NCBI GenBank assembly: GCA_964016885.1
Contig: OZ024745.1
Span: 133,734,001-133,798,000 of the forward strand
Reading direction: 5' to 3'
DNA from: Eledone cirrhosa
Taxonomy: Eukaryota
Length of the DNA stretch: 64,000 nucleotides
Part shown: piece by piece, positions 1,510-55,628 of the stretch
Position numbering within the stretch: the stretch's first letter is position 1
How the letters are laid out: every line of letters begins with the position of its first letter
The notes under the pieces: model-generated
Database searches by the model: none
Seen by the model: the letters and a program-made list of their open reading frames with translations, nothing else
What the model was told of the DNA's origin: nothing
Made by a program: the position numbers and the translations under genes

Positions 1510-1571
1510 TATATATATAAATATACATATATATATACTATCAGACGTTCAATCATCTGGCAGGAAGGTAT

Positions 1572-1614
1572 ACGTTGCTGACGATAGCTAATAAGCTTGA
1601 AACTAGTACAGCGT
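1572..1614 (+). ncRNA. Minimal type I hammerhead ribozyme
   Basis: ACGTTG-CTGACGA-T-AGCT-aata-AGCT-T-GAAA-CTAG-TA-CAGCGT; 6-bp stem I, palindromic stem III ACTAGT, GUA site. Confidence 0.8.
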
Positions 1615-1868
1615 TCCTTTGTCAGTGTTGAACAAATGAGCAACGATGGTTGCTAGACACTGTACGGCTTAATTCGGAATGTTTGTTTACAAACACACCG
1701 AGCATTATAATAAATGTTCGGTGAATCCATACGTACATATATATATATATGTGCATGTATGTATATATATATACATACTACTGTACGTCTGTATACATAT
1801 ATGTATGTACGTATAAATACTTATATATATATATACATATATATATATACACATATATATATATATAC

Positions 1869-1930
<62 letters not shown>

Positions 1931-1931
1931 T

Positions 1932-1988
<57 letters not shown>

Positions 1989-2227
1989 ATATGCATGCTA
2001 CTGTACGTCTGTATACATATATGTATGTACGTATACATACATACTAACATTTAAGTAAGTGCCGTACTAAGAGTGAGAAATGAAATTTCGTTTTCATTTT
2101 ATTACAACTTATCGTTCTCGGTACGCCTGACCGAACTCACTCGATATGCAAATTAGGCTGCTCAGCCGTTAATTTTCATAAGGAAAGTATATACTTTCGA
2201 ACGTTCAACCATCTGGCAGAAGGGTAT

Positions 2228-2270
2228 ACGGTGCTGATGATAGCTAACAAGCTTGAAACTAGTACATCGT
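2228..2270 (+). ncRNA. Minimal type I hammerhead ribozyme
   Basis: ACGGTG-CTGATGA-T-AGCT-aaca-AGCT-T-GAAA-CTAG-TA-CATCGT; stem I pairing kept despite substitutions. Confidence 0.8.
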
Positions 2271-2435
2271 TCCTGTGTCAGTGTTGAACAAAAAGGTGAC
2301 GTGGTTGCCTTAACACCGTACGGCATAAATTCAGGCTGTTCAGTTTGTTTACAAACGAACAAAGCGGGCGTTATAATAAGCGTCCGCTAAACTGATACGT
2401 ACATATATGTATGTGTACCTGTATGTATATATATG

Positions 2436-2499
<64 letters not shown>

Positions 2500-2715
2500 T
2501 GCTACTGTACGTCTGTATACATATATGTATGTACGTATACATACATACTTACATTTAAGTAAGTGCCGTACTAAGAGTGAGAAATGAAATTTCGTTTTCA
2601 TTTTATTACAACTTATATATATATAGATATTTGTTTATATATACTGTATATATATTATAATATGCATATATGCATACGTATATATTTATGTGTGTGTGTG
2701 TGTGTGTGTGTATAC

Positions 2716-11290: not shown

Positions 11291-11490
11291 TATCATTATT
11301 TAATATAGAAATGGCTTCTACAGGACTAAAACTGTTTCATTTATATGAGGATTCCCTGATGATTTCATACGAATGAAATAGTTCTAGTCCTGTAAAAACA
11401 ATTTCTTTATTAAATAAAGATGTTTAAACTCTAATAATGTATTGAATAACTACTTTAACGGTGGTGATTCCTCGATTTTACTAGGGATCT
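11291..11490 (+). mobile_element. Fold-back element family B with HHR-like core
   Basis: Inverted arms 11298-11340 / 11373-11415 around CTGATGA-T-TTC-atac-GAA-T-GAAA. Confidence 0.65.
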
Positions 11491-12185: not shown

Positions 12186-12326
12186 ATTATTCAATACATT
12201 AGTAGAGTTTAAATATCTTTATTTAATAATGAGATTGCTTTTACATGATTAGAACTGTTTCATTCGTATGAAATCATCAGGGGATCTTCATAGAAATGAA
12301 ACAGTTTTAGTCCTTTAGAAGCCATG
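12186..12326 (-). mobile_element. Fold-back element family B, opposite orientation
   Basis: Reverse complement of 11310-11455; TCATCAG at 12274-12280. Confidence 0.65.
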
Positions 12327-25229: not shown

Positions 25230-25431
25230 GCTTAATATTTATTCAAACGGTTGTCATTTTGAAGAAAAAGTTAATTTTCACATATGAAGTGGCGAGCGAA
25301 ATGCGTAGCTGATGATTTCTCCCGAATGAAACAGTTCTAGTTCTGTAGAAGCTTTTCTATATTAAATATTTATACTCTGCTTTGTATTGAGTACCTTACT
25401 TACTGTGGTTACCCCCGACCCGGGATAAGCT
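25230..25431 (+). mobile_element. Family B element with HHR-like motif at 25306-25339
   Basis: TAG-CTGATGA-T-TTC-tccc-GAA-T-GAAA-CAG-TT-CTA; tail matches 11373-11475 and 49742-49845. Confidence 0.6.
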
Positions 25432-34729: not shown

Positions 34730-35645
34730 TTTTTTTTGACCGGCCACCTTCCTGTTGGCAAGGTTGTAAAAGAAAAGAAATTGTCATCCCTTGAATCGCA
34801 AGAATGTTTTGCAAATTTTGAAGGTGCCAGCTATCGCAGCCATTTGTAGACTATGAATTAGGGAGCCGCGCTTTTTGTCCGCAAATCCAATCCAAGTTCA
34901 GTCATACTTTGGTCCAAGCGGGTTGGTATATAACCCGTAGCACCAATAATGATGGGTATGAAGCTAAAGGTGTATCTTGGATACTGGATTTGTAAACTCC
35001 TCATCAATGGTCCATAGATGTCCTCCTTCTCCTGTATTTTTCTGACAAAGTTTACATCAAGTGGGCAGCTGATCTCCATAACAGAACACGTTTTCAATGT
35101 GTGGTCCCAAACAACAATATCAGGCCGGTTGTGCTTTAATTTGGTGGCAGTTTTTATTTTCAGGTCCCACCAGTATTCCTTAGTGCCATCTGTCTCAATA
35201 TATTCTTCCTCGTTTGTTGTTAATTTTGTTTTCCGAAGTGCGCTCCAGATGGTTCTAGCTATCACATCGTGTCTCATGGGGAGGTAGTAGCGAGATGACA
35301 TTCTTTCGCAGCTGGCAACAATGTGGCTTACATCTTCGATCTTTGTTTTACATAGCCTACATTTATCGTCAGCTGCTGGCCCTCCCCTTTTGTGCAGCAG
35401 ATATTTGGTAGGGAGTTCTTGTTCCTGTATTGCATAGAGATATCCCTCAAGGTGTGATGTCATAAACTTGTCGCAACTCCATGCCAGGCTTTTTGAGTGG
35501 TTTATCCCCTCTATGGTCAGTGTTTTACGTCTCAAGTATCCATGCACAACTTTTTCTGTAAATTGGTCAATTTTTTCATCTTGTTTGAACATTGAATAGG
35601 ATCTTCCGATTTCTCTGGGTGAGAGATTTATATCAGGCTTTATTC
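34730..35645 (-). mobile_element. R4/Dong-like non-LTR element, 5'-truncated (ORF 35592-34858)
   Basis: CRLC..HIVASC zinc knuckle, RHD, RPDIVVWD..EISCP, IPIIIGATG (restriction-like endonuclease); frameshifted GTFKICKTF end; A-rich 3' end. Confidence 0.88.
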
Positions 35646-35680
35646 CATGTATGTATGTATGTATGTATGTATGTATGTAT

Positions 35681-36172
35681 GTCCTGGAGAGATGATCCCT
35701 TAGCCTTTGTCAAGGCAGAATTCTAGAAGGAAAACTCTGATATAACACCTGCAACCCTGGTGGTATCCAATGATGTTGACTTGTTCTTCTTTTTGGTAAA
35801 TATCATCTTGGTTAAGAGAGTGGGACTGGCTTTGTGCAGCGCCTTTGCTCACTATAAAAGCTTCACGGCACAGGCATTGCTTTATATCTGGAGATCTCTC
35901 TGCACTTGTCATCACAGGGTACAATGGGCCCAGCACTATGTGTCAGTAATTGTCACAAGTGTAGTGTTTGTACCAGAGTTTTCAAGTCGCTGGCTGGACT
36001 AAAAAGTCACACTCGTTCAGCGCATCAGTAGGGGTTCCCCTACATGGATATAAAGTAGTGGCCGTACTCGAAAACGAGTTGGCAGCCACCATGTATGTAT
36101 GTATGTATGTATGTATGTATGTATGTATGTATGTATGTATGTGTGTATGTATGTATGTATGTATGTATGTAT
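35681..36172 (+). mobile_element. Internally deleted RTE-like element between (TATG)n tracts
   Basis: Reverse complement of 22212-22505 with an extra internal segment. Confidence 0.75.
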
Positions 36173-37042: not shown

Positions 37043-37644
37043 CTGTGTGTCTGTGTGTCGGTGTGTATGTGTGTGTGTGTGCGCGCGGGTCTGTATGTGT
37101 GTGTGAGCATGTATCATATATATATATTCATAAACCACATATGTGTGTATGTGTGTATGTATGTGTGAATGTATGTATGGATGGATACATATATGTATGT
37201 ATGTAGATAGCAGGTAGTTATATGTGTATGCAAGTATATATTAATATAAGCTGAGCTCCTTTCCACGTGGTTTAAGATTGGCAAGTTTGTGGTAAGTAGG
37301 GAGGAGAGTTTGTCACTATACACATGAAAAGTCCACGTGATTTGACAAACAAAATCAACCACAGCACACACTAATGTATACTTCAGCTGCTTACTACACA
37401 ATTTAATATATATTTAAATGAACCACTCATATCAACACCAATAATATGCAAATTAGTACGCTGATTCTAAAATATGAGATAGGGTATACAAGCTTCCTTG
37501 AGGTTGATTAACTGAAGTAAATATCTTCTCATGAGATCCCAATATCGTTCAAGCATCGATTGAATATATTCACCATTTCTTCAGTTTACAGGGAAATAAA
37601 TAGCTTCGACATATTTACATGTCTCGATAATCGCTTACTTCTGG

Positions 37645-39569: not shown

Positions 39570-40940
39570 AACTTTGATAACACTGACAGGTTTCGGTTAG
39601 TATTGCCCTAGGCCATGTCTAACTTAATAGCACCACCTGGCGAAGTCTTTCATATCAGGATTTGGGCAACATGGCTCACTCAAGTAGAGTTATTATTTTC
39701 GGAGACATATCCGGGTGTAGGAGGTTTATCCGGGATTTCTTGAAGTCCAAAGACTTCTTGAACTTTATGGGGTCTGCTTCTGTTTTAATGTGTTTTGGTG
39801 TAATGTTAAAGAGAGAAAGAGAGCGGGGCCAATTGAGGTGAAATAACTGTGTCGTATTCTTGTTATGAGATGCGCGTGTGATTCTTGTCGTGGACGGATA
39901 GCACGGGGCCCAAGCCTTGGGTGTACATTAAAGGTGATGCATAATGTTCTTTTCGGCCCATTGAATAACAGCCAGTAGGCCTGACTGAAGGCAAGTCCGG
40001 TCACCCACCTCATTGATGACCTTCCGGAGCTTGGAATGATTTGCGAAGATTCCTATGATGATGTCAGTAATGTCATTAATGTAGATGATGAAAAGAAGTG
40101 GGTCCAACACAGTGCCTTGCGGGACGCCACTGCTGACTTTGGCTGGGCTTGATTTTACTCCTTCGACTACAACAGGTTGGGTTCTGTCTCTCAGGAAACA
40201 CTTGTTCCACTGTAGTAACTTTCCAGAGACACCAATGTTGGATAGTTTTTTCAATAAAACCTTGTGTTCAACTCTGTCAAAGGCCTTGCTGAAATCAAGT
40301 TAGATGGCATCAGTGCTGGAGCCCTCACCCAAGGTTCTCAAAACATAGTCAAAGTGATGCAGGAGCTGCGTTAGGCAGTCTCTTCCATTACGGAACCCAT
40401 GTTGGTTGGAGTTCAGCAGCCTATTGCTTTTGAGAAAGTGGGTTATTCGTGATCTCACCACCCTCTCAAATACCTTGATGATATGAGAAGTGAGTGAGAT
40501 CGGACGGCAAGTTTCCCTTTTTGAAAACTGGGACAACAGACTGGGACAAAAAGTTTTCAGGGATATAGCCAGCAACCAGTGAGTTCCTCCACAGATTAGC
40601 AAGAGGAGATGCACGTTGGTGTCGATACACCTTGAGGACACAAGCAGGGAACCTATCGGGGCCTACTGCTGAATTGTGTTTAATTCGTTTATTGCTGCTA
40701 AGACATCAGGACGCCAAACGTTATGTCCGATATAGTGTGTTGGGGATTAACATCACTGATGCAGCCCAGATCGTCCATATCAGGATTGCTGAAAACAGAG
40801 CAGTATTGTTTCTGCAGTATCTCACCCATTGTTTTGGCATTATCTTGGAGTGTGCTATTTTCATCAATTAGTGGGCCAATAGTGAAGACAGTGACCTTGT
40901 GTTTTTTCGTAAATGAAAAGAACACTTTCTACGTTAATGC
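39570..40940 (-). mobile_element. CR1-like LINE RT remnant
   Basis: RPISLTSHIIKVFE, NQHGFR, SGVPQGTVLDPLLFIIYINDI; several frameshifts and stops. Confidence 0.9.
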
Positions 40941-43047: not shown

Positions 43048-43472
43048 CCTCCATGTACGTCAATACTCATCTTTTTCCATTTCTCCGAGGGTTCTTAACC
43101 CCACTATCAGGCTAAATAATTTCTTTAATTTCTTTAGTCAAAATACGGCGATAGCTTACATTTCTAATAATTTCAAACCCACTCGCTGTTTCGAAAATAT
43201 TCTTACTAGACATTACGGTCGCTAAGTTTATAGCTTCTAATTTGAATGGAAAGAGACGGGTGATGTGTTGGTGTAAATGGTAGCACAGTGGTCCGGATAA
43301 TCAAAGATGTGGGTTCGACTCCCATATACGTCAATACTCATCTTTTTTCCATTTCTCCGAGGGTTCTTAACCCCACTATCAGGCTAAATAATTTCTTTAT
43401 TCAAAATACGGTGATAGCTTACATTTCTAATAATTTCAAACCCACACGCTGTTTCGAAAATATTCTTCTTGA
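43048..43472 (+). mobile_element. Partial tandem repeat carrying a tRNA-like sequence
   Basis: 43050-43210 repeats at 43321-43472; third copy folded back at 48697-48930. Confidence 0.75.
43262..43333 (+). tRNA. tRNA-like cloverleaf, probably pseudo-tRNA (loop reads GGA)
   Basis: Acceptor GATGTGT/ATACGTC, D arm GTGT/GCAC, T arm GTGGG-TTCGACT-CCCAT, T6 run about 10 nt downstream; C33 and T37 are non-canonical. Confidence 0.6.
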
Positions 43473-50407: not shown

Positions 50408-53400
50408 TGTATGTTAGTGTATGTGTGGGGCTGGGTGTATATATGTTAGTGTATGTGTGGGGCTGGGTGTATATATGTTAGTGTATCTGTGGAGCTGGGT
50501 GTATATATGTTAGTGTATTTGTGGAGCTGGGTGTATATATGTTAGTGTATGTGTGGGGCTGGGTGTATATATGTTAGTATATGTGTGGGGCTGGGTGTAT
50601 ATATGTTAGTATATGTGTGGGGCTGGGTGTATATATGTTAGTGTATCTGTGGAACTGGGTGTATATATGTTAGTGTATGTGTGGGGCTGGGTGTATATAT
50701 GCTAGTGTATGTGTGGGGCTGGGTGTATATATGTTAGTGTATGTGTGGGGCTGGGTGTATATATGCTAGTGTATGTGTGGAACTGGGTGTATATATGTTA
50801 GTGTATATGTGGAGCTGGGTGTATATATGTTAGTGTATATGTGGAGCTGGGTGTATATATGTTAGTATATGTGTGGAGCTGGGTGTATATATGTTAGTGT
50901 ATGTGTGGGGCTGGGTGTATATATGCTAGTGTATGTGTGGAGCTGGGTGTATATATGCTAGTGTATTTGTGGGGCTGGGTGTATATATGTTAGTGTATGT
51001 GTGGAGCTGGGTCTATATATGTTAGTGTATCTGTGGAACTGGGTGTATATATGTTAGTATATGTGTGGGGCTGGGTGTATATATGTTAGTATATATGTGG
51101 GGCTGGGTGTATATATGTTAGTGTACCTGTGGAGCTGGGTGTATATATGTTAGTGTATGTGTGGGGCTGGGTCTATATATGTTAGTGTACCTGTGGAGCT
51201 GGGTGTATATATGTTAGTGTATGTGTGGAGCTGGGTGTATATATGTTAGTATATGTGTGGGGCTGGGTGTATATATGTTAGTGTATCTGTGGAGCTGGGT
51301 GTATATATGTTAGTGTATGTGTGGAGCTGGGTGTATATATGTTAGTGTATGTGTGGAGCTGGGTGTATATATGTTAGTGTATCTGTGGAGCTGGGTGTAT
51401 ATATGTTAGTGTATGTGTGGAGCTGGGTGTATATATGTTAGTGTATCTGTAGAGCTGGGTGTATATATGTTAGTGTATATGTGGAGCTGGGTGTATATAT
51501 GTTACTATATGTGTGGAGCTGGGTGTATATATGTTAGTGTATCTGTGGAACTGGGTGTATATATGTTAGTGTATGTGGGGAGCTGGGTGTATATATATTA
51601 GTGTATGTGTGGAGCTGGGTGTATATATATTAGTATATGTGTGGGGCTGGGTGTATATATGTTAGTGTATCTGTGGAACTGGGTGTATATATGTTAGTGT
51701 ATGTGTGGAGCTGGCTGTATATATGTTAGTATATGTGTGGAGCTGGGTGTATATATGTTAGTGTATGTGTGGAGCTGGGTGTATATATGTTAGTGTATCT
51801 GTGGAACTGGGTGTATATATGTTAGTGTATCTGTGGAACTGGGTGTATATATGTTAGTGTATGTGTGGGGCTGGGTGTATATATGTTAGTATATGTGTGG
51901 AGCTGGGTGTATATATGTTAGTGTATCTGTGGAACTGGGTGTATATATGTTAGTGTATGTGTGGAGCTGGGTGTATATATGCTAGTGTATGTGTGGAGCT
52001 GGGTGTATATATGTTAGTGTATCTGTGGAGCTGTGTGTATATATGTTAGTATATCTGTGGAGCTGGGTCTATATATGTTAGTATATGTGTGGAGCTGGGT
52101 GTATATATGTTAGTGTATATGTGGAGCTGGGTGTATATATGTTAGTATATGTGTGGAGCTGGGTGTATATATGCTAGTGTATGTGTGGTGCTGGGTGTAT
52201 ATATGCTAGTGTATCTGTGGAGCTGGGTGTATATATGTTAGTGTATGTGTGGGGCTGGGTGTATATATGTTAGTGTATGTGTGGTGCTGGGTGTATATAT
52301 GTTAGTATATGTGTGGAGCTGGGTGTATATATATTAGTGTATGTGTGGGGCTGGGTGTATATATGCAAGTGTATGTGTGGAGCTGGGTGTATATATGTTA
52401 GTATATGTGTGGGGCTGGGTGTATATATGCTAGTGTATGTGTGGAGCTGGGTGTATATATGTTACTGTATGTGTGGGGCTGGGTGTATAAATGTTAGTAT
52501 ATGTGTGGAGCTGGGTGTATATATATTAGTATATGTGTGGAGCTGGGTGTATATATGCTAGTGTATGTGTGGAGCTGGGTGTATATATGTTAGTGTATCT
52601 GTGGAGCTGGGTGTATATATGTTAGTGTATATGTGGAGCTGGGTGTATATATGTTAGTGTATATGTGGGGCTGGATGTATATATGTTAGTGTATGTGTGG
52701 AGCTGGGTGTATATATACTAGTATATGTGTGGAGCTGGGTGTATATATGTTAGTGTATATGTGGAGCTGGGTGTATATATGCTAGTGTATGTGTGGAGCT
52801 GGGTGTATATATGCTAGTGTATTTGTGGAGCTGGGTGTATATATGTTAGTGTATGTGTGGAGCTGGGTGTATATATGTTAGTGTATCTGTGGAGCTGGGT
52901 GTATATATGTTAGTGTATATGTGGAGCTGGGTGTATATATGTTAGTGTATATGTGGAGCTGGGTGTATATATGTTAGTGTATCTGTGGAGCTGGGTGTAT
53001 ATATGTTAGTGTATGTGTGGAGCTGGGTGTATATATGTTAGTGTATGTGTGGAGCTGGGTGTATATATGTTAGTATATGTGTGGAGCTGGGTGTATATAT
53101 ATTAGTGTATCTGTGGAGCTGGGTGTATGTATATTAGTATATGTGTGGAGCTGGGTGTATATATGCTAGTGTATTTGTGGAGCTGGGTGTATATATGTTA
53201 GTGTGTGTGGAGATGGGTGTATATATGTTAGTGTATTTGTGGAGCTGGGTGTATATATGCTAGTGTATTTGTGGAGCTGGGTGTATATATATTAGTGTAT
53301 GTGTGGAGCTGGGTGTATATATGTTAGTGTATGTGTGGGGCTGGGTGTATGTATGTTAGTGTATCTGTGGAGCTGGGTGTATATATGTTAGTGTATGTGT

Positions 53401-55628
53401 GGAGCTGGGTGTATATATGCTAGTGTATTTGTGGAGCTGGGTGTATATATGTTAGTGTATGTGTGGAGCTGGGTGTATATATGTTAGTGTATGTGTGGAA
53501 CTGGGTGTATATATGTTAGTGTATGTGTGGAGCTGGGTGTATATATGTTAGTATATGTGTGGGGCTGGGTGTATATATGTTAGTGTATCTGTGGAGCTGG
53601 GTGTATATATGTTAGTGTATGTGTGGAGCTGGGTGTATATATGCTAGTGTATGTGTGGTGCTGGGTGTATATATGCTAGTGTATCTGTGGAGCTGGGTGT
53701 ATATATGTTAGTGTATGTGTGGTGCTGGGTGTATATATGTTAGTATATGTGTGGAGCTGGGTGTATATATATTAGTGTATGTGTGGGGCTGGGTGTATAT
53801 ATGCTAGTGTATTTGTGGAGCTGGGTATATATATATTAGTGTATGTGTGGAGCTGGGTGTATATATGCTAGTGTATGTGTGGAGCTGGGTGTATATATGT
53901 TAGTGTATATGTGGAGCTGGGTGTATATATGTTAGTGTATGTGTGGAGCTGGGTGTATATATGTTAGTGTATGTGTGGAGCTGGGTGTATATATACTAGT
54001 AAATGTGTTGAGCTGGGTGTATATATGCTAGTGTATTTGTGGAGCTGGGTGTATATATGTTAGTGTATGTGTGGAGCTGGGTGTATATATGTTAGTGTAT
54101 GTGTGGAGCTGGGTGTATATATGTTAGTGTATGTATGGAGCTGGGTGTATATATACTAGTAAATGTGTGGAGCTGGGTGTATATATGCTAGTGTATTTGT
54201 GGAGCTGGGTGTATATATATTAGTGTATGTGTGGAGCTGGGTGTATATATGCTAGTGTATGTGTGGAGCTGGGTGTATATATGTTAGTGTATATGTGGAG
54301 CTGGGTGTATATATGTTAGTGTATGTGTGGAGCTGGGTGTATATATGTTAGTGTATGTGTGGAGCTGGGTGTATATATGTTAGTGTATGTGTGGAGCTGG
54401 GTGTATATATGTTAGTGTATGTGTGGAACTGGGTGTATATATGCTAGTGTATGTATGGAGATGGGTGTATATATATTAGTGTATGTGTGGGGCTGGGTCT
54501 ATATATGCTAGTGTATGTGTGGAGCTGGGTGTATATATGTTAGTGTATGTGTGGAGCTGGGTGTATATATGTTAGTATATGTGTGGGGCTGGGTGTATAT
54601 ATGTTAGTCTATATGTGGAGCTGGGTGTATATATGTTAGTGTATGTGTGGAGCTGGGTGTATATATGCTAGTGTATGTGTGGAGCTGGGTGTATATATGT
54701 TAGTGTATGTGTGGATCTGGGTGTATCTATGTTAGTGTATGTGTGGAGCTGGGTGTATATATGTTAGTGTATCTGTGGAGCTGGGTGTATATATGTTAGT
54801 GTATATGTGGAGCTGGGTGTATATATGTTAGTGTATGTGTGGAGCTGGGTGTATATATGTTAGTGTATGTGTGGTGCTGGTTGTATATATGCTAGTGTAT
54901 GTGTGGAGCTGGGTGTATATATGCTAGTGTATGTGTGGAGCTGGGTGTATATATGCTAGTGTATGTGTGGAGCTGGGTGTATATATATTAGTGTATGTGT
55001 GGAGCTGGGTGTATATATGTTAGTGTATGTGTGGGGCTGGGTCTATATATGCTAGTATATGTGTGGAGCTGGGTGTATATATGCTAGTGTATGTGTGGAG
55101 CTGGGTGTATATATATTAGTGTATGTGTGGAGCTGGGTGTATATATGTTAGTATATGTGTGGGGCTGGGTGTATATATGTTAGTGTATCTGTGGAGCTGG
55201 GTGTATATATATTAGTGTATGTGTGGAGCTGGGTGTATATATGTTAGTGTATGTGTGGGGCTGGGTCTATATATGCTAGTATATGTGTGGAGCTGGGTGT
55301 ATATATATTAGTGTATGTGTGGGGCTGGGTGTATATATGCTAGTGTATGTGTGGAGCTGGGTGTATATATGTTAGTGTATATGTGGAGCTGGGTGTATAT
55401 ATGTTAGTGTATGTGTGGAGCTGGGTGTATATATGCTAGTATATGTGTGGAGCTGGGTGTATATATATTAGTGTATGTGTGGGGCTGGGTCTATATATGT
55501 TAGTGTATGTGTGGAGCTGGGTGTATATATGTTAGTATATGCGTGGAGCTGGGTGTATATATGTTAGTGTATGTGTGGAGCTGGGTGTATATATGTTAGT
55601 GTATGTGTGGACCTGGGCGTATATATGC
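50408..55628. repeat. 30-bp minisatellite, about 170 copies
   Basis: ATATGTTAGTGTATGTGTGGAGCTGGGTGT with point variants. Confidence 0.97.

Follow-up and report, generated by a model that had tools for sequence, protein, structure and literature searches.

A non-coding hammerhead repeat family with Penelope-type insertion ends in the genome of Eledone cirrhosa

The two hammerhead motifs in span 1544..2614 of the window (the whole 64,000-nt stretch analysed, to which all positions refer) belong to a non-coding hammerhead repeat that has a unit of 430–520 nt and Penelope-type ends and, judging from sequence comparison, is likely copied from circular RNA by a Penelope-like enzyme (probability about 0.7). 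By the sequence-level definition of animal non-LTR retrozymes, the family is a retrozyme of an already known kind, and the original prediction of a retrozyme-like unit is supported at the level of the family. The span itself likely comprises two separate insertions of different subfamilies, sf1 and sf2, in one (TA)n tract, since each copy stops at a canonical 3′ end with TA next to it.

Organization of the Locus

Type I hammerhead cores CUGANGA start at positions 1578 and 2234, each accompanied by GAAA-CUAG-UA (Table 1). The GUA sites predicted to be cleaved, after 1608 and after 2264, are present in the sequence and lie 656 nt apart, as originally proposed. In each hammerhead, stem II has 4 bp above a U-U pair, the palindrome CUAG serves as a loop, and stem III is formed by the palindrome ACUAGU (predicted duplex energy −6.8 kcal/mol). 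As was also noted initially, the copies differ at N7 (C/T), in loop II (AAUA/AACA), and at stem I pair 3 (U-G in copy 1, G-U in copy 2). The 96-nt regions of both hammerheads out-fold dinucleotide shuffles (z = −3.07 and −2.99), and in hammerhead 2 a UAU bulge follows 6 bp of stem I.

Neither hammerhead was detected by the Rfam scan of the window at the gathering score, which is not evidence against them because short type I motifs can score low; no tRNA was found by Rfam in the span. The span has no real open reading frame, the longest ATG frame (114 aa) running through TA repeats, in agreement with its initial description as non-coding. Another hammerhead-like family, with loop III CAGU/UAGU, is seen in the window at 11348-11390 (+), ~12250-12288 (−), and 25301-25345 (+), and recurs beside TA tracts in three other loci (L126, L130, L133).

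Table 1. Features of the two insertions, in window coordinates.
Feature	Position	Strand	Evidence or remark
sf1 copy, 5′-truncated, with short (tail-less) 3′ end	1532..1823	+	98% to natural sf1 unit over 1532-1736, 78% to sf2
Hammerhead 1, type I	1572..1614	+	sequence, folding vs shuffles
Parts of hammerhead 1	stem I 1572-1577/1609-1614; core 1578-1584; stem II 1586-1597; GAAA 1599-1602	+	palindromic CUAG loop
(TA)n tract, likely target of both insertions	1824..1992	.	83 A, 79 T, 8 C in 170 nt (1823-1992)
sf2 copy, ~1.25 units, period 504	1993..2616	+	1993-2112 repeated at 2497-2616
Long-range helix	2060-2066 with 2319-2325	+	outer pair U-A in sf2, A-U in sf1
Helix around tail hairpin and long 3′-end site	2071-2077 with 2136-2142	+	A-U to G-C in one subfamily
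Candidate promoter element TATGCAAATTAG	2145..2156	+	motif match to host U6, U6atac, RNase MRP
TATA-like box	2187..2193	+	41 nt from octamer start; part of 16-nt palindrome 2183-2198
Hammerhead 2, extended stem I	2203..2289	+	core 2234-2240, stem II 2242-2253, GAAA 2255-2258
10-bp hairpin	2363..2388	+	4/10 pairs changed on both sides between subfamilies
Internal (TA)n tract of sf2 unit	2401..2496	.	length varies among copies
‘Tail’, 59 nt	2558..2616	+	from the short 3′ end (sf2 position 61) to the long one (position 120)

The repeat layout is not that of a simple tandem: 1532-1736 and 2188-2400 are ~78–86% alike, and the two ends of the sf2 copy (1993-2112 and 2497-2616) are 99% alike. The sf1 copy ends at sf1 position 57, followed by TA, with its 5′ boundary blurred in TA (1532-1544), and the sf2 copy stops at the long (tailed) 3′ end at ~2614-2616, again followed by TA. 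The 656-nt spacing would then result from insertion of the sf2 copy into the TA tract that follows the sf1 copy.

Distribution in the Genome

In the genome (3.0 Gb, 1796 contigs), the exact core pattern has 38,158 matches, and the reversed control has none. The upstream (sf1) half of the span yielded 272 first-look candidates, the 40 scored ones being 96–100% identical, and the downstream (sf2) half, 730 candidates, with the 40 scored ones 99–100% identical over 2113-2400; as copies are 99–100% alike, the family is probably still active. The two subfamilies are ~83–87% alike. The same core pattern also reveals a distant clan B, with units of 466–469 nt that have no internal TA tract and about 70–78% local identity to clan A, which includes sf1 and sf2. 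The GC content of natural monomers is 0.36, and they have no coding frames beyond those of the TA repeats.

RNA Structure and Its Conservation

We compared 201 distinct hammerhead contexts, 184 from clan A and 17 from clan B. Stems I and II stay paired, with letters differing between the clans at stem I pairs 3–5 and stem II pairs 2–4; thus, the selection on ribozyme structure suggested from the window is supported at the family level, across subfamilies and in the distant clan. Also conserved across contexts are the AAYA loop II and a bulge, UAU/UAA, that follows 6 bp of stem I; by analogy with the canonical type I description in the available part of PMC4209133, these two would form a tertiary contact. 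In 180 of the 184 clan A contexts, U-U replaces G-C at the stem II base. Stem I pair 3 is U-G in 88 and G-U in 75 of these 184 contexts; hence, the stem I flip described initially is present, but it is a fixed subfamily difference and not a change at the window locus. The accompanying statement that flanks are more diverged than the hammerheads is weak, with four differences per 43 nt (1572-1614) vs. 28 per 205 aligned nucleotides overall, the near-identical flanking segment of the sf2 copy, and most of the compensatory changes located in the flanks.

Helix III of 1–2 bp with a palindromic loop has been described as requiring dimers (PMC4209133, available part). By analogy with this dimer type, a double hammerhead formed via the palindromic stems III, as envisaged in the original prediction, is plausible for the family.

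Covariation among genomic copies, a check of the kind proposed at the outset, was assessed on 16 clan A copies representing clusters of 118 distinct full blocks. Among the 69 named pairs, both partners have changed in nine, a count reached in none of 500 shuffles and compared to one to four in slid controls; the copies are related, and thus the count reflects few lineages rather than 16 events. One of the nine pairs lies in the proximal hammerhead, and the others belong to the long-range helix, the helix at the 3′-end site, distal stem I, and the downstream hairpin. In the structural model, the long-range helix closes the unit on itself. One more helix considered, P1, is misaligned between subfamilies and 58% paired, and adds nothing.

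Insertion Ends and the Template

Insertion ends were mapped in 79 loci taken in genome order and chosen by the tail motif (84 from the first 100 of 16,992 matches, with five overlapping ones dropped). These loci contain 145 arms, 70 of them with long, 39 with short, and 36 with other 3′ ends, where the long end is unit position 113 (sf1) or 120 (sf2), or nearby, and the short end is position 57 or 61, respectively; that is, there are two fixed 3′ sites 56–59 nt apart. TA follows 58 out of 70 long and 35 out of 39 short ends (93 out of 109 classed). Clan B has the same two 3′ ends, and no LTR layout was seen in the end mapping of the 145 arms.

Back-to-back inverted pairs account for 53 out of 92 insertions in this tail-anchored sample: 30 long+short, one long+long, no short+short, and 22 unclassed. 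Two more samples, chosen by the hammerhead region and hence free of the tail-motif ascertainment, gave 12 long+short, two long+long, no short+short, and 19 unclassed pairs (n = 33), and four, none, none, and one, respectively (n = 5). Over the three samples, 46 out of 49 classed pairs are long+short and three are long+long, 42 out of 91 pairs being unclassed. Penelope-like elements, according to the available part of PMC8557442, feature partial tandems, an inverted 5′ arm, and a tail at one end only, and in the anole Penelope-like element the tail lies between two internal reverse transcription start sites identified in vitro (PMC11167929, available part). The retrozyme insertion ends match this anatomy, suggesting that Penelope-like retrotransposons likely move the family.

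The 5′ ends are scattered: only four out of 145 fall within 5 nt of the predicted cleavage site, while 87 arms cross this site, 15 of them twice or more. As few 5′ ends lie at the cleavage site and many arms cross it, the template was not cut linear RNA; we infer that it was a circle or an uncut multimer, and the data fit both. Although T4–T6 runs occur at the long 3′ end, its origin by Pol III termination is disfavored, because the covarying helix 2071-2077/2136-2142 needs sequence 3′ of this end, and no T run is present at the short one.

Taking these data together, the following cycle can be proposed. A tandem copy would be transcribed, possibly from a U6-like element just upstream of stem I; two hammerheads, probably paired via the ACUAGU palindromes, would excise a monomer, and a host ligase would close it. 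A Penelope-like element, probably of the Neptune type, would supply the GIY-YIG/RT protein that nicks (TA)n, and reverse transcription would start inside the RNA at one of the two structured sites, one per DNA strand. Passing the ribozyme site, the reverse transcriptase would make products of 0.2 to several units, many of which bear a second, inverted arm, and long arrays would subsequently extend at the DNA level.

The circle could be irrelevant to mobility if a non-autonomous Penelope-like element were copied from linear uncut read-through RNA, with the hammerhead being slow, protein-gated, or serving for end trimming. The crossing of the cleavage site fits uncut read-through RNA equally well, the end signature is the same, and tandem donors are common; the stem II base is weak, and stem III has 1 bp. 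In the available part of PMC11167929, uncut RNA is the main substrate of the anole element in vitro and the ribozyme is dispensable, as ribozyme mutants still insert, the element cleaving only with protein; eight out of nine Xenopus retrozymes are reported not to cleave in vitro (bioRxiv 10.64898/2026.07.22.740005, available part). However, the core and stems are retained across two clans with about 70–78% local identity, as are the bulge and loop II; the modeled long-range helix closes the unit on itself; and comparable elements of coral, mussel, and axolotl accumulate as circles (PMC7229834, available part). We therefore consider copying from linear RNA unlikely, at roughly one chance in five, though it is the strongest competitor of the circular template.

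Unit Length and Arrays

Core spacings were measured between successive same-strand cores in 55 non-overlapping loci, yielding 25 values. Spacings between sf1 cores are 423–511 nt in 12 out of 13 cases (the remaining one is 860 nt), and those between sf2 cores, 463–520 nt in seven out of eight (the remaining one is 1008 nt). Thus, the tandem period is ~430 nt for sf1 and 460–520 nt for sf2, the spread coming from the internal TA tract. The spacing of 656 nt, originally taken for the length of the released monomer, occurs once among the 25, in the window itself, which is the sole sf1-to-sf2 pair. A selected 656-nt retrozyme monomer, or a single chimeric insertion formed by template switching, is accordingly very improbable: both cores are intact and on the same strand, and an RNA of 656 nt could be freed from a transcript reading through them, but the halves match their own subfamilies at 98–100%, each has a canonical 3′ end followed by TA, and stacking of different families in one TA tract is common, e.g., in locus L020.

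Arrays reach 31 cores. The identity of units has a median of 99.2% within loci (59 pairs) vs. 96.2% between loci (1571 pairs), and in the 31-core array nine out of 14 substitutions are common to non-adjacent units. Because non-adjacent units share variants, the long arrays grew after insertion, at the DNA level; for the same reason, the explanation of long arrays as single rolling-circle products (six units were parsed in the second array) is unsupported. Clan B loci L020, L063, L137, L138, and L300-L302 include arrays of ~14 and 31 cores, and the long ones retain the inverted short arm and both canonical ends.

Least probable of all is a conventional satellite that recombination has spread, its hammerhead being a fossil and RNA playing no part. 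Such a satellite would account for arrays reaching 31 cores in which units have variants in common, but not for short, dispersed copies whose 3′ ends are fixed while their 5′ ends scatter, nor for their inverted arms and TA targets; the canonical ends kept in long arrays too and the covarying structure also speak against it.

Candidate Promoter

The 12-mer TATGCAAATTAG and the TATA-like box upstream of stem I are kept in both clans despite differing surroundings, and the 12-mer sits 70–95 nt before the core in 24,496 copies, compared to a background of five hits in 486 kb. In the host U6 genes, a motif of this form is located at −78 to −76 in eight out of 11 distinct top upstream regions (three loci); it is found at the same distance in the best-scoring of 12 U6atac loci and in the single RNase MRP gene, and the genes bearing the motif have TATA at about −31. 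Twelve weaker U6 and 11 weaker U6atac copies, with the appearance of retrocopies, lack the motif, as do eight out of eight distinct U2 upstream regions and RNase P. With the predicted start at 2218-2223, just before stem I, these data give about even odds that the U6-like element is the promoter of the retrozyme unit.

Several observations temper this assignment. The element-to-TATA spacing is 41 nt in clan A and 40 nt in clan B, shorter than the 45–47 nt of the host Pol III genes; one subfamily has G for A at motif position 11; and T4–T6 runs inside the unit mean that a promoter-driven transcript would need read-through. The segment 2171-2181 is an imperfect inverted counterpart of the 12-mer, which RNAalifold folds into a stem, and the TATA-like box is part of a palindrome, so that RNA structure could explain the retention of both. 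The window locus is an unlikely source of promoter-driven monomers, since the promoter element is missing in the sf1 copy and, in the sf2 copy, is followed by a single hammerhead. Nor are 5′ ends convincingly concentrated at the predicted start: eight out of 145 fall in a 15-nt interval, with ~5 expected from the local density.

Lone U6-type 12-mers occur in the window at 37445 (+) and 61428 (−), with no hammerhead pattern noted nearby. The RNase P RNA gene (upstream region in L299) shares ATCAGTGG with several U2 upstream regions (L169-L181), hinting at a Pol II snRNA-type promoter of RNase P. On contig C19, more than 30 U6 genes (L146-L168) stand in tandem at ~1.8 kb spacing, with a variant motif; one of them, L150, has an insertion in the promoter.

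Potential Autonomous Partners

The host genome holds RT+GIY-YIG elements with a CxxC linker, which is a mark of Neptune-type clades (PMC8557442, available part), and among the GIY-YIG matches Neptune-like families number at least five, alongside some elements of other types. Two Neptune-type families have long direct and short inverted ends inserted into TA; such long and short ends are seen in the autonomous RT+GIY-YIG loci L126, L130, and L134. No partner with the terminal sequence of the retrozyme was found among 46 GIY-YIG loci (derived from 150 scored of 10,596 candidates). The best tail match has an uncorrected p of ~0.01 over 15 comparisons, and a weak AT-rich match to one family (uncorrected p of 0.01–0.04) was rejected. 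The retrozyme unit contains no ORF with RT and GIY-YIG, and hence it is not an autonomous Penelope-like element.

Taken one step further, the data would be compatible with a self-contained circular-RNA parasite: a captured U6-type promoter starts transcription at the 5′ strand of stem I (~2218-2223), the ribozyme clips the leader and frees a monomer circle, and a structured two-site signal lets a Neptune-type enzyme start inside the circle from both target strands. This combination, based on sequence features, is possible at somewhat less than even odds; if true, it names the promoter and the mobilizing machinery that, according to reviews, animal retrozymes leave unrevealed.

The Neptune-like elements L121, L122, L126, L129, L130, L132, and the families of L091 and L097 have frames of up to 938 aa, and their 3′ regions contain no canonical hammerhead; the L124 family has a hammerhead with a GUAC loop in its 3′ region. 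In the window, RVT_1 and zf-RVT fragments at 39931-40662 (−) and 34861-35709 (−) are probably LINE remnants.

Comparison With Known Systems

The family resembles the animal non-LTR retrozymes, as described in the available part of Cervera and de la Pena (2020; PMC7229834), in its non-coding tandem unit with one type I hammerhead and GC of ~36%, in its range from dimers to long arrays, and in tens of thousands of copies. At the level of the ribozyme, a one-pair stem III with a palindromic tetraloop is known in axolotl HHR_Amex1, and U-U at the stem II base, in HHR_Amex2 (PMC7229834). Comparing by description, the units there are shorter (170–400 nt vs. 430–520 nt here), and the distinguishing features of the present family are the internal variable (TA)n tract, the two fixed 3′ ends with inverted arms, and the candidate internal promoter.

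Vertebrate retrozymes, according to the available part of Li, Clavereau, and Pollet (2026; bioRxiv 10.64898/2026.07.22.740005), also co-occur with Penelope-like elements and form monomers, dimers, and multimers, with a range of 51–972 bp that spans our unit. There, the link of Xenopus retrozymes to Penelope-like elements is co-occurrence and pLTR similarity, whereas here it is the insertion anatomy, no sequence-matching pLTR having been found. AT-rich targets, 5′ truncation, partial tandems, an inverted 5′ arm, and an optional tail at one end are shared with Poseidon of Anolis (PMC11167929) and the Neptune clade (PMC8557442), as far as the available parts of these papers go; unlike the EN+ Penelope-like elements described in them, the present family has no ORF, and its hammerhead is canonical, not minimal. 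The tail is 56–59 nt here, 30–40 nt in these papers, and ~45–63 nt in the host Neptune-type families.

Newt satellite 2, with an snRNA-type Pol II promoter, and the schistosome satellite, with a Pol III promoter, similarly combine a hammerhead tandem repeat with an internal promoter (PMC2220036, available part); in our case, the motif, so far a candidate, matches host Pol III type 3 genes (U6, U6atac, MRP) and not U2. The LTR retrozymes of plants, which carry type III hammerheads in LTRs, differ from the type I topology and tandem units observed here.

In its available part, a 2020 review presents animal retrozymes as showing neither a promoter nor a motif pointing to a partner (PMC7761336), and the 2026 preprint, likewise in its available part, reports little evidence on the retrozyme life cycle (bioRxiv 10.64898/2026.07.22.740005). 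Our literature search, with most subscription papers outside its reach, retrieved nothing published about retrozymes of cephalopods or about retrozyme tails. While the hammerhead pair alone is ordinary, the asymmetry of the Penelope ‘tail’ is seen directly in the insertions, yielding two exact predicted start sites of reverse transcription, and the candidate retrozyme promoter can be compared with the host’s own U6.

Among other features of the window, a tRNA-like Rfam match at 43262-43333 (+), with 45 bits, is possibly a SINE head, and the strong GC skew is accounted for by a 32-nt minisatellite at 50410-55627 (163 copies, 92% matches).
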